From Candidatus Asgardarchaeum abyssi (lineage in GTDB: Archaea; Asgardarchaeota; Asgardarchaeia; Asgardarchaeales; Asgardarchaeaceae): a stretch of 64,000 nucleotides of DNA. A program made the position numbers and the translations under genes. Below, piece after piece: positions 25,714-28,476 of this stretch. Numbering within the stretch: position 1 is the first letter of the stretch; every line of letters starts with the position of its first letter. Below the pieces are notes generated by a model, which was not told where the DNA came from, searched no databases, and saw nothing but the letters and a program-made list of their open reading frames with translations. The stretch lies in NCBI GenBank assembly GCA_040225955.1, contig JBECUL010000005.1, positions 1 through 64,000 on the forward strand, read 5' to 3'.

Positions 25714-28476
25714 TTGAACAACGTGGTGAATAAATTGAAGAGATATGTATCTCTACTTATTATCGCCATGTTGTTCTTGTCTGGTCCATTGACCTTTGCG
25801 ATCGGTCCCGCGCAAAGGCCCTTACAAAACCCCTCTTTTGCTAGTAAAACAAATAATAATATGAAAACTACTTTTGAGTTATCAAATGAGAGCAATAATG
25901 GATCTTTAGATACGTTACAAGCAGGATTTTATCGTGTCATAGACGTATATCCATCAGGAAAAAGAGTTGTTCGTGGAGTTGCTTCATTCGGCGCATCAAT
26001 ACAACCTAGAGCACGATCAGAAGAATATAAGCATCCTCTGAGTTCGGACGATGTTTGGATATCTGGTTTACAAGGAGCTTTCTTATACTTTGGACCTATC
26101 TATATTAATGACGTAAAGTATTATCGTAACAGGATTTTGGTATTTAAAAACGATTCGACTACACCCGAAGAGAAAAGACACTGGGATCTGCATTTAGGTA
26201 CTCAAGGATTTGGTGCATCTATAGATTATGGATTTGATGGGATAGAGGATTTTATCGTACCGAATGAGTATAATATACCGATTATTATTAACGGTACCAA
26301 CGGCAATATATTACATACCTTCACGCGATCTGATCCAGAGGAAGAATACATTAAGGTATCTGCAGGAAATATTGATAGTGATAGCTACTCAGAAATTGTT
26401 TTCTTGTACAATAAAACAATCGGTACTAATGAATTATATCTTAGAATAGTCGATGACTGGAATCATGATTTTGCCGAAATTAAGACGATAGATGTGGGCA
26501 GTCTTATTACTAGTTACGGAGGAACACTTTTTTCAAAGGATTCAAACTTACATCTTAGTGATATTGATAATGATGGAAGAGCCGAAATAATACTGACTAT
26601 CAAGCTTAAAGTATATGATCCATACTACTATAATGATTATGCAGTTAAATGCGTGGTTTTTGTTTTCGACGACTCACTTGCAAATTTTGAGAAGATATCA
26701 GAGATATCTGACGAAATATATTTACTTCTCTATTCCGCTTTTGCTGACATAACACCAAATGCTATTGCTGGAGAATTTGATAATGATGGCGTTAGCGAAC
26801 TAATTGTTTCATTTGGCTACTTATATTATTTTGAATATAATACAAGTACAGGGAAAATAGATTATATAAAATACCTAGCATCGCCAGAAATTGGAGCAAT
26901 ATCCGCATCACCAGTACTTTTAGCAGAAGACTTGGATCTTGATTATAAAGATGAGCTGATTGTCGTAGAGCCTACTAGCAGCTCATTTAATGTTTTCATA
27001 CTTGATTTAAACAGTACTGATATTGAAACTGTACATTCGATGTTTGATCCTCTCCTCTTAGGAAGTTCAGTAATGCCACGTATAAATGCTATAGTCGGCA
27101 ATTTTGATGACGATCCGTATCTTGAATTTGCAGTTGCATTTCATATCGGTGATTATGACATTTATATAGATAATAAGGGGATTGCGTTTTTTGGTGATGT
27201 AACTGAAAATTATAAAGTAGTATCCCTTGAGTATAAAAAGGGAAAAGACCCTATAATGACACCAGTACTCATTCCAGTTTCTTTAAGTGGAAGAATATTG
27301 CTTCATTATACAGGTTTGCATAATCAAAGTATCTCTGCTCCGTACATAATTGCTGCCATGGCAGCACCACCTACAGTTGAGGGAATTTCTCAAAATTATG
27401 AGTCAACAAGTACCCTCTTTGGTACAGCAGTTAGTAAAACTACTACTGAATCTAATGGCTATACGGTATCTACTGGTGTCACGTTGTCCTTCGAAGCAGG
27501 AGACATTTTCAAAATAGTAGACATTCATGCATCTGTTACCCTTTCAAGGGAACTTTCAAAAACACATACTGTAGCACAAACAATACAAGAGTGCAGAGAA
27601 TTCGCTGGAGATTTCTCCCATGACTACGTTATCTTTGAAACGGTAACATATGACAATTACTACTATGAAGTACTTGTTCATCCGAATAAAACAGTAATTG
27701 GCCAAATTATGGCAATTAGCGTTCCAAATACACCAACTGTATATAAATGGACTGTTGAATACTTTAATAGTCATAATGAAGATTATCCAGACATTGGAAG
27801 TGAGACTTTTAATCATACAATTGGGAAAGTATGGACCTACCTTACAAGGGAAGACGTAGCAAAATTAGAGTCTAAGTATATTTCGAAAGGATTTTGGAAG
27901 TCTGATGGAACAATGACTGTTGGATCTGGGCAAGGTGTAAACAGCATAGAGATTAACTTAGAGGAAGAAGAAACTACAGAAATTACTACCACAATTGGTG
28001 TAGAGTTTGAGGCTGGAGTTGCAATAGCAGGAGTCGGGCTTTCTGTAAGTTGTGGTCTAAGCTCGTCATACATGTATTCTATTAGTATTGGCAGGTCAAC
28101 AAAATACAGAGGCGATATTGGTGACATTGATCCATCAGATTACAACACGTATAAATACTCTGTTGGTTTAGTTGTATATAATTTTTACAGAGAGAAGGAT
28201 AATTTAGCTTATCAAGTAGTGAATTACTGGGTAGAAGACTATACTGGCCCTCGCGACTCAGGGTCTACTGATTTCGGTAATATAACCGATAATTCGGTAT
28301 TCTCAAACATAATTTCACAGATCAGTGAGATAACAGGGCTTAGTCCAGAGATTGTTGTTTTAGGCTTAGGTGCAGTCACTGTTATAGGTATTGGTGGAGC
28401 TTTGTTTAAGGCCATACACAGAGGCGGAAAGAGAAGAAAGGCCTCAAAGAAGAGAAAAACACGTAGGAGAAAGTAA
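25714..28476 (+). CDS. Surface protein: FG-GAP/integrin-alpha-like propeller, aerolysin-like beta-hairpin region, TM anchor
   Basis: Signal peptide, five DxDxDG-type loops, two Ser/Thr-rich hairpins containing FEAG, C-terminal TM and basic tail. Confidence 0.75.
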   Translation: MNNVVNKLKRYVSLLIIAMLFLSGPLTFAIGPAQRPLQNPSFASKTNNNMKTTFELSNESNNGSLDTLQAGFYRVIDVYPSGKRVVRGVASFGASIQPRARSEEYKHPLSSDDVWISGLQGAFLYFGPIYINDVKYYRNRILVFKNDSTTPEEKRHWDLHLGTQGFGASIDYGFDGIEDFIVPNEYNIPIIINGTNGNILHTFTRSDPEEEYIKVSAGNIDSDSYSEIVFLYNKTIGTNELYLRIVDDWNHDFAEIKTIDVGSLITSYGGTLFSKDSNLHLSDIDNDGRAEIILTIKLKVYDPYYYNDYAVKCVVFVFDDSLANFEKISEISDEIYLLLYSAFADITPNAIAGEFDNDGVSELIVSFGYLYYFEYNTSTGKIDYIKYLASPEIGAISASPVLLAEDLDLDYKDELIVVEPTSSSFNVFILDLNSTDIETVHSMFDPLLLGSSVMPRINAIVGNFDDDPYLEFAVAFHIGDYDIYIDNKGIAFFGDVTENYKVVSLEYKKGKDPIMTPVLIPVSLSGRILLHYTGLHNQSISAPYIIAAMAAPPTVEGISQNYESTSTLFGTAVSKTTTESNGYTVSTGVTLSFEAGDIFKIVDIHASVTLSRELSKTHTVAQTIQECREFAGDFSHDYVIFETVTYDNYYYEVLVHPNKTVIGQIMAISVPNTPTVYKWTVEYFNSHNEDYPDIGSETFNHTIGKVWTYLTREDVAKLESKYISKGFWKSDGTMTVGSGQGVNSIEINLEEEETTEITTTIGVEFEAGVAIAGVGLSVSCGLSSSYMYSISIGRSTKYRGDIGDIDPSDYNTYKYSVGLVVYNFYREKDNLAYQVVNYWVEDYTGPRDSGSTDFGNITDNSVFSNIISQISEITGLSPEIVVLGLGAVTVIGIGGALFKAIHRGGKRRKASKKRKTRRRK

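Follow-up and report, generated by a model that had tools for sequence, protein, structure and literature searches.

An FG-GAP propeller protein of Candidatus Asgardarchaeum abyssi with an aerolysin-like module, two amphipathic hairpins and a membrane tether

The window analysed here, 64,000 nucleotides of contig JBECUL010000005.1 from Candidatus Asgardarchaeum abyssi, contains a gene (Table 1) for a protein in which a signal peptide is followed by an Asn/Ser-rich linker, a seven-bladed FG-GAP propeller, a conserved C-terminal module, a further linker, a transmembrane helix and a polybasic tail. What does an Asgard archaeon do with a surface protein of this kind? An earlier note, made from the sequence of the same DNA, read the open reading frame at 25714-28476 (+) as a membrane-tethered propeller fused to two aerolysin-like beta-hairpins and suggested a contact-dependent adhesin, pore former or fusogen. 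The open reading frame exists, with 920 codons counted from its TTG start, and the cell-anchored architecture of a propeller joined to an aerolysin-like module holds, given the propeller, the membrane tether and C-terminal matches to beta-pore formers only. The function that we favour, with a probability of about one half, is that of a type I surface protein acting as a cell-tethered beta-pore former, either contact-dependent or vesicle-borne, that is, a lectin-plus-aerolysin plan kept on the producing cell.

The C-terminal module and its hairpins

A model of the module alone, built with 43 homologues, has a mean predicted local distance difference test value (pLDDT) of 78.7 and a predicted template modelling score (pTM) of 0.80, with values above 90 in the core and a drop to 42-65 at exactly two places, around residues 570-630 and 755-790, which are the two hairpins. 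In the full-length model, the module begins with a long strand (527-540), a second strand (544-549), a short strand (566-571) and hairpin 1, and continues with strands 622-633, 638-655 and 665-680, an insertion of 135 residues, and strands 816-826 and 831-841. The long strands (527-540, 638-655, 665-680, 816-826 and 831-841) are modelled in an aerolysin-like topology, and both the strand order and the position of the insertion loop in this model are compatible with the published definition of the aerolysin domain (PMC3110756; PMC9363482). The insertion loop of aerolysin-type proteins, between strands 2 and 3, is represented by residues 575-625, with conserved alternation and a high content of Ser and Thr. 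The variable region between beta4 and beta5 of the fold corresponds to residues 681-815, bounded by the long strands 665-680 and 816-826; it holds helices and the second amphipathic hairpin, which is unusual for the aerolysin fold.

Structure prediction followed by a Foldseek search, which the earlier note had proposed as a check together with oligomer modelling, points to the same group of proteins. With the module as the query against the PDB, no match scores below an E-value of 1e-3; the top rows are Clostridium perfringens enterotoxin (CPE; E 3e-3), and HA70 is matched as well. In a search independent of Foldseek, 12 of the 26 top chains (of 48,161) are aerolysin-fold proteins, including SaroL-1, the Bombina aerolysin-like protein, CPE, parasporin-2, lamprey LIP, LSL, Mpp75, Sip and the aerolysin prepore, and upon re-alignment of the fold matches all 20 of 20 rows are aerolysin-fold proteins (CPE, Dln1, epsilon toxin and HA70). 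A profile of 43 sequences retrieves only four PDB chains, all of the aerolysin family and all on hairpin 1 (Cry78Aa with E 8e-4, CEL-III and Cry23Aa). With 149 sequences, the E-value of Cry78Aa falls to 3.2e-5 and anthrax PA63 is added on hairpin 2 (E 0.04); nine of the nine matches are insertion loops of beta-pore formers, the remainder being CEL-III and Cry23Aa. These E-values call for caution because the hairpin loops are compositionally biased. Ordinary Ig-like sandwiches, the outcome named in the earlier note as fatal to its proposal, are not among the fold and profile matches of the C-terminal region, which are confined to the aerolysin family and other beta-pore formers. A search of the protein against NCBIfam gives a single match at chance level.

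The two Ser/Thr-rich alternating segments that the earlier note had described as related are both present, at residues 576-620 (nucleotides 27439-27573) and 753-786 (nucleotides 27970-28071), and their relatedness is limited to the motif F-E-A-G, which is conserved at the end of the first arm in both hairpins. An internal duplication of the module was considered and rejected, with a profile-profile probability of 3.9% for the two halves in hhalign and an E-value of 3.5 in BLASTP; an hhalign comparison of the hairpins alone is degenerate, with one aligned column. In the alignment of 43 members, which spans archaeal-type and bacterial-type proteins (defined below by their tethers), hydrophobic and polar columns strictly alternate at residues 583-595, 604-610 (and 614), 761-767 and 776-782. 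The polar face of the hairpins is made of Glu, Ser and Thr, and the tips are hydrophobic; Ser and Thr together account for 30% of hairpin 1 (residues 575-625) versus 13% of the propeller. When the strictly alternating runs of the entire protein are ranked by length in an alignment of 30 full-length homologues, the four hairpin arms take the first four places (12, 12, 10 and 9 columns), and the propeller reaches a maximum of 6. The hairpin pattern exceeds chance at the level of the family, not on the single sequence. Hairpin 1 is modelled, at low pLDDT, as two short strands and a helix, the same form that the membrane-spanning region of Cry78Aa, BinAB and Cry35Ab1 takes in crystals (PMC9363482). 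On hairpin 2, weak matches to Pfam CEL_III_C, below the threshold, are found in 5 of the 43 members.

These observations bear on the main alternative function, that of a non-lytic surface adhesin or scaffold in which the propeller would bind ligands and the aerolysin-like module would serve as a stalk or an oligomerization domain that builds rings or arrays. The alternating segments would then be ordinary strands. HA70 is the precedent for the fold without pores, and HA70/HA3 is among the fold matches; moreover, FG-GAP propellers are typical binding modules. However, no other alternating run comes close in length to the four arms, which are conserved across domains of life, the hairpins are the only parts of the model with low confidence, as expected of metastable insertion loops, and every profile match in the PDB is a membrane-insertion loop. 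We consider a pure adhesin possible rather than probable.

The module is also predicted to associate with itself. Three copies of residues 524-849, modelled in three runs, score 0.81, 0.81 and 0.80, and the best control scores 0.00; the runs agree in at least 91% of the contacts, with a partner pLDDT of at least 78. The mark applied to this score was calibrated with two copies and a separate set of alignments, and is attained by 20 of 30 solved pairs and by 1 of 23 single chains. The oligomer modelling, which supports self-association of the module, yields a heterologous, head-to-tail interface in which surface A of one copy (residues 563-574, 626-638 and 675-687, namely, the flanks of hairpin 1 and the YKW strand) would lie on surface B of the next one (residues 730-748 and 799-816, the flanks of hairpin 2). 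The modelled contact, which is of the ring or filament type (contacts are listed for the scored copy only), places hairpin 1 of one protomer beside hairpin 2 of its neighbour. Head-to-tail association of this kind would fit the lattice or filament of an adhesin equally well.

Propeller, tethers and the family

The full-length model (pLDDT 77.9, pTM 0.70) shows approximately 28 strands in seven groups of four at residues 72-523, with pLDDT of 82-95 across residues 110-520. A Foldseek search with this part identifies integrin alphaV, integrin alphaIIb, UmbA4, CRTAC1, TcB and the PVL lectin with E-values from 1e-8 to 1e-6 (for PVL, a template modelling score of 0.5 by target), so that the assignment as an FG-GAP propeller in the earlier note is borne out at E-values of about 1e-8 for integrin alpha, the PVL lectin and UmbA4. 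The Pfam FG-GAP model scores 21.5 bits here, compared to a cut-off of 22.1, and 42-50 bits in homologues. All five calcium-type loops recognized before lie where they had been placed, and a sixth, degenerate loop (residues 169-179) had been missed. The five loops fit the spacing Dx[DN]xDGxxD/E of predicted calcium sites, with acidic residues or Asn at positions 1, 3, 5 and 9, and their D/D/E positions are invariant or nearly invariant among homologues; in loop 2, none of 30 homologues departs from D285, D287 and E291. The propellers of integrin alpha, PVL and UmbA4 likewise have seven blades with calcium loops of the DxDxDGxxD type between them; unlike integrin alpha, the present protein has neither thigh and calf legs nor a beta-subunit partner. 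PVL and UmbA4 are lectins that bind carbohydrate or teichuronic acid and are used for targeting.

The transmembrane helix and the extremely basic tail noted before are both found (Table 1), and the 22 residues that follow the hydrophobic window used for scoring include 14 Lys or Arg. Only the closest Asgard homologues (P0003-P0014) have tails with 9-15 Lys/Arg (in 14-26 residues), and the other members with a transmembrane anchor have 3-6. This basicity goes far beyond the positive-inside rule, and binding of lipid, cytoskeleton or nucleic acid by the tail is possible. A C-terminal transmembrane helix followed by basic residues is present in 43 of the 164 family members; 94 members, most of them N-terminal lipoproteins, have no transmembrane anchor and stop at most 15 residues past the module. 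The two types of tether are nearly mutually exclusive: 51 members combine a lipobox with an end at the module, 29 combine a plain signal peptide with a C-terminal transmembrane helix, and 3 have both. The archaeal type has the C-terminal helix, and the bacterial type has an N-terminal lipobox, which puts the module at the opposite end of the protein from the lipid. In a maximum-likelihood tree of the module, rooted at the midpoint, the transmembrane-anchored forms make up one contiguous block of about 50 leaves that holds every Asgard-named protein and lies between two blocks of forms ending at the module, more than half of which carry a lipobox. Given the two nearly exclusive tether types and these blocks of the tree, retention on the surface of the producer appears to be a conserved trait, realized through two different anchors. 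The same retention (43 members with a C-terminal transmembrane helix and at least 51 with a lipobox) is what an adhesin would have.

The anchors also bear on two further explanations. A cell-cell fusogen would merge membranes, in the manner of class II fusogens or fusexins, by means of an elongated ectodomain rich in beta-structure, hydrophobic loops (FEAGDIFKIV and FEAGVAIAGVG) and a C-terminal transmembrane helix; features reminiscent of this plan are the anchor, its stem-like linker and the hydrophobic hairpin tips, and one post-fusion chain of yellow fever E appears at rank 21 of the Foldseek output with a probability of 0.05. However, no class II fusogen is found in the Foldseek-independent PDB search or in a viral structure library, where the matches are noise, the domain order differs from the three-domain plan of class II, and a fusogen needs its transmembrane anchor next to the stem, yet 94 of the 164 members lack one. 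Since most members are without such an anchor and no class II fusogen is matched, fusion is the least probable of the functions considered; of the three activities suggested earlier, the pore former is favoured, the adhesin is possible and the fusogen is not supported. The other explanation is a pore or channel in the envelope of the producer itself, serving as a conduit for uptake or export or as a regulated device of self-permeabilization (suicide). Tethering is conserved across the family, and in the archaeal protein only 32 residues separate the module from the producer's membrane, both of which would suit such a role. Against it, module and lipid anchor are at opposite ends of the bacterial form, none of the PADLOC defence-system models matches, and there is no conserved regulatory or sensor partner at the three homologous loci examined; we consider this role improbable.

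The family to which the module belongs is large. An exhaustive search with the whole protein identifies 754 representative clusters with E-values up to 1e-3 and 608 with E-values up to 1e-10, and beyond the closest relatives the match is restricted to residues ~528-842. The module is usually C-terminal to an FG-GAP propeller, and elsewhere it occurs with three jacalin domains, Laminin_G_3, or Big_2/Ig domains. In P0136, a metagenomic protein of 1387 residues, a weak hint of dockerin and three jacalin domains precede the module; its domain grammar is that of the eukaryotic natterin/Dln1 pore formers, although the pore module is unrelated. Named full-length relatives (34-48% identity) come from metagenome-assembled genomes of Odin-, Njord- and Heimdallarchaeota, and the names of family proteins include Hodarchaeota, Polyangiaceae and Planctomycetes. 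Among species-representative genomes, the named carriers are Thorarchaeota, uncultured archaea, Myxococcota and Planctomycetota, including a metagenome-assembled genome of Brocadiaceae; outside Asgard archaea, they are Myxococcota and Planctomycetota (loci L017-L026), both groups with complex cell biology. The gene is present in a single copy in this genome, and the family is found in 24 of 301 sampled Asgard genomes and in 13 of 70 genera, a patchy distribution typical of an accessory gene. With only 8% of the Asgard genomes having it, the protein is unlikely to be a core component of the envelope, which counts against the adhesin.

Taken together, the hairpin pattern, the fold and profile matches, which are one-sided to beta-pore formers, the strand order, the predicted self-association and the patchy distribution count for the tethered pore former, as does the toxin-like modular grammar. 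Under this proposal, the propeller would bind a glycan or protein ligand on a touching cell or vesicle; the tethered molecules would then assemble laterally into a ring; and the hairpins would unfold and come together as a beta-barrel within the target membrane, making it permeable. Each protomer may supply four strands, two from each hairpin. The purpose might be antagonism towards neighbours or the release of nutrients from them, and the tether (the C-terminal helix in archaea and the N-terminal lipid in bacteria) would confine the action to the immediate surroundings or to vesicles that are shed. The inferred elements are closure of the ring, insertion into the membrane, a role for both hairpins, and the target. 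Still more tentative, and in our opinion rather unlikely in its full form, is the idea of a new aerolysin-type branch with two hairpins per protomer, those of adjacent protomers meeting at the subunit interface, which in Asgard archaea, Myxococcota and Planctomycetota would form a tethered, contact-dependent device that opens the membranes of partner or prey cells on contact.

Several observations weigh against a pore former. The beta-periodicity of the single sequence is not beyond that of shuffled sequences, of which about 12% reach it. The matches to the Ser/Thr-rich alternating loops are partly compositional. The Pfam models Aerolysin (PF01117) and ETX_MTX2 (PF03318) find no match in this protein at E-values up to 1 or in the 43 members at E-values up to 5 (an ETX_MTX2 search of the 301 Asgard genomes is also without a match, and the control genomes are equally silent). 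No enrichment of conserved alignment columns is seen at the interface of the model (0.405 vs 0.438). Known aerolysin-type toxins are, to our knowledge, secreted and have one hairpin, whereas most members of this family are tethered to the cell; in the archaeal form, the module adjoins the membrane of the producer itself. Aerolysin-like folds are also found in non-lytic proteins such as HA70. Finally, no conserved neighbour or immunity gene is present in the window or at three homologous loci, a result that also speaks for the adhesin.

Comparison with known systems clarifies which parts of the plan are shared. Among the closest are the natterin-like, Dln1-type proteins (PDB 4ZNQ; lamprey LIP, 5ZU4), which likewise place a binding domain at the N-terminus, ahead of an aerolysin-type module whose insertion loop is amphipathic; the fold searches with the module retrieve both Dln1 and LIP, and P0136 has three jacalin domains as in natterin/Dln1. 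Here, however, the binding domain is an FG-GAP propeller with calcium loops, the protein is tethered to the membrane, the module, roughly double in size, has the 135-residue beta4-beta5 insertion and its second hairpin, and there is no detectable sequence relation. The Cry78Aa/BinAB/Cry35Ab1 group (trefoil lectin plus aerolysin-type domain; PDB 7Y78 and 7Y79) provides the best profile match (E 3.2e-5), which falls on the insertion loop, and shares Ser/Thr patches with hairpin 1, but no more than about 70 residues, in a loop of biased composition, are aligned, and these toxins are soluble Bacillus crystal proteins with one hairpin and a trefoil lectin. CPE matches with a weak score at 7-11% identity, and it is secreted and binds claudin via its C-terminal domain. 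The insertion loop 2beta2-2beta3 of anthrax protective antigen aligns with hairpin 2 over 69 residues (E 0.04) and has a hydrophobic tip; the score is marginal, the loop alone is matched and the surrounding domains are unrelated. MACPF proteins of the BSAP type and CDC-like proteins of Bacteroidota provide precedents for beta-pore formers that are anchored by lipid to the producing cell or its vesicles and attack neighbouring microbes from there, and MACPF/CDC protomers contribute two hairpins each. Their fold is different, and no match to the MACPF/CDC fold was found for the present protein.

The gene and its neighbourhood

The gene has alternative starts at GTG 25723, GTG 25726 and TTG 25735. 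The last one gives a 913-residue form, and because an identical database entry has 913 residues, this appears to be the start used by gene callers. A TTTATAAG box is located at 25680-25687, ~27-34 nucleotides 5' of the first TTG. The choice among the candidate starts has no effect on the mature protein. The disordered Asn/Ser-rich linker that follows the signal peptide extends to about residue 66 (pLDDT below 50 at residues 23-66). The coordinates of all features are given in Table 1.

Table 1. Features of the propeller-module gene and its product (nucleotide positions refer to the window)
Feature	Position	Strand	Residues	Remarks
Whole gene	25714..28476	+	920 aa	From TTG 25714; stop codon 28474-28476
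Signal peptide, hydrophobic core	25747..25806	+	12-31	Predicted from sequence
Seven-bladed FG-GAP/integrin-alpha-type beta-propeller	25927..27282	+	~72-523	Full-length model and Foldseek
Degenerate sixth Ca-type loop, SIDYGFDGIED	26218..26250	+	169-179	Gly at ligand position 3
Ca-type loop 1, GNIDSDSYSE	26365..26394	+	218-227	
Ca-type loop 2, SDIDNDGRAE	26557..26586	+	282-291	Invariant positions given in the text
Ca-type loop 3, GEFDNDGVSE	26770..26799	+	353-362	
Ca-type loop 4, EDLDLDYKDE	26926..26955	+	405-414	
Ca-type loop 5, GNFDDDPYLE	27097..27126	+	462-471	
Conserved C-terminal module	27283..28251	+	524-846	About 320 aa; no Pfam or NCBIfam family
Hairpin 1	27436..27588	+	575-625	Arms 583-595 and 604-614; tip GD(I/P)F(K/G)IV
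Hairpin 2	27961..28098	+	750-795	Arms 761-767 and 776-782; tip GVAIAGVG; in the beta4-beta5 insertion
Linker from module to membrane	28252..28347	+	847-878	32 residues
C-terminal transmembrane helix	28351..28416	+	880-901	Hydropathy 2.39 over 19 residues; modelled as helix
Polybasic cytoplasmic tail, HRGGKRRKASKKRKTRRRK	28417..28473	+	902-920	

The flanking genes encode metallo-beta-lactamase-fold proteins, NfeD, DUF401, a methyltransferase, an MNT/HepT pair and adenine deaminase; as these are unrelated and partly on the other strand, the gene appears to stand alone. At the homologous locus L013, a neighbour of 916 residues is unrelated to the propeller-module protein. Among the other genes of the window, the MNT/HepT toxin-antitoxin pair consists of two overlapping genes at 31128-31776 (+), about 2.7 kb downstream, for a nucleotidyltransferase (NTP_transf_2/Polbeta, 100 residues) and a HepT-like RNase (120 residues). 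Two archaeal ATPase genes, of the types ATPase_2+DUF234 and AAA_14+DUF4143, are located at 43859-45229 (-) and 54025-55338 (+); an ATPase_2 gene is also found near the Odinarchaeota homologue, probably by coincidence. Envelope proteins are abundant in the 64-kb window, which also encodes an FtsX-like permease of 965 residues (47641-50538, -) and a probable surface protein of 637 residues with right-handed beta-helix/NosD repeats (60807-62720, -). The 474-residue open reading frame at 55440-56864 (-) has no Pfam family at E-values up to 1e-5.

Novelty and meaning

Integrin-repeat proteins have been counted among the Asgard 'eukaryotic signature' proteins (Liu et al. 2021, as cited in PMC9258230), and because such proteins were already reported in Asgard genomes, the propeller alone is not new. 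Nor is the fold unprecedented in archaea, given that a 2011 paper mentions aerolysin-like genes of Methanosarcinaceae (PMC3110756). A survey of transporters in Asgard genomes lists, in this respect, only homologues of hemolysin A and hemolysin III (PMC7997004). In the literature searched, no paper pairs 'Asgard' with 'FG-GAP', none pairs FG-GAP propellers with a pore-forming module, and no aerolysin-type pore former is reported in Asgard archaea. Relative to the lectin-plus-aerolysin grammar, the integrin-type propeller, the second hairpin and the cell tether are new.

If the protein were only an adhesin, it would be one more accessory protein of the cell surface, unusual in its stalk. If it is a true pore former, then the 754 representative clusters would constitute a large unannotated family that joins an integrin-like targeting propeller to a two-hairpin, aerolysin-like engine and a tether. 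Such a family would extend the aerolysin superfamily mechanistically, to four strands per protomer, ecologically, to contact-dependent action among environmental microbes, and phylogenetically, with one archaeal-type block among bacterial lipoprotein forms. For the Asgard archaea, it would provide a testable molecule for action on the membranes of bacterial neighbours and, with it, a handle on the physical interactions between Asgard archaea and bacteria.

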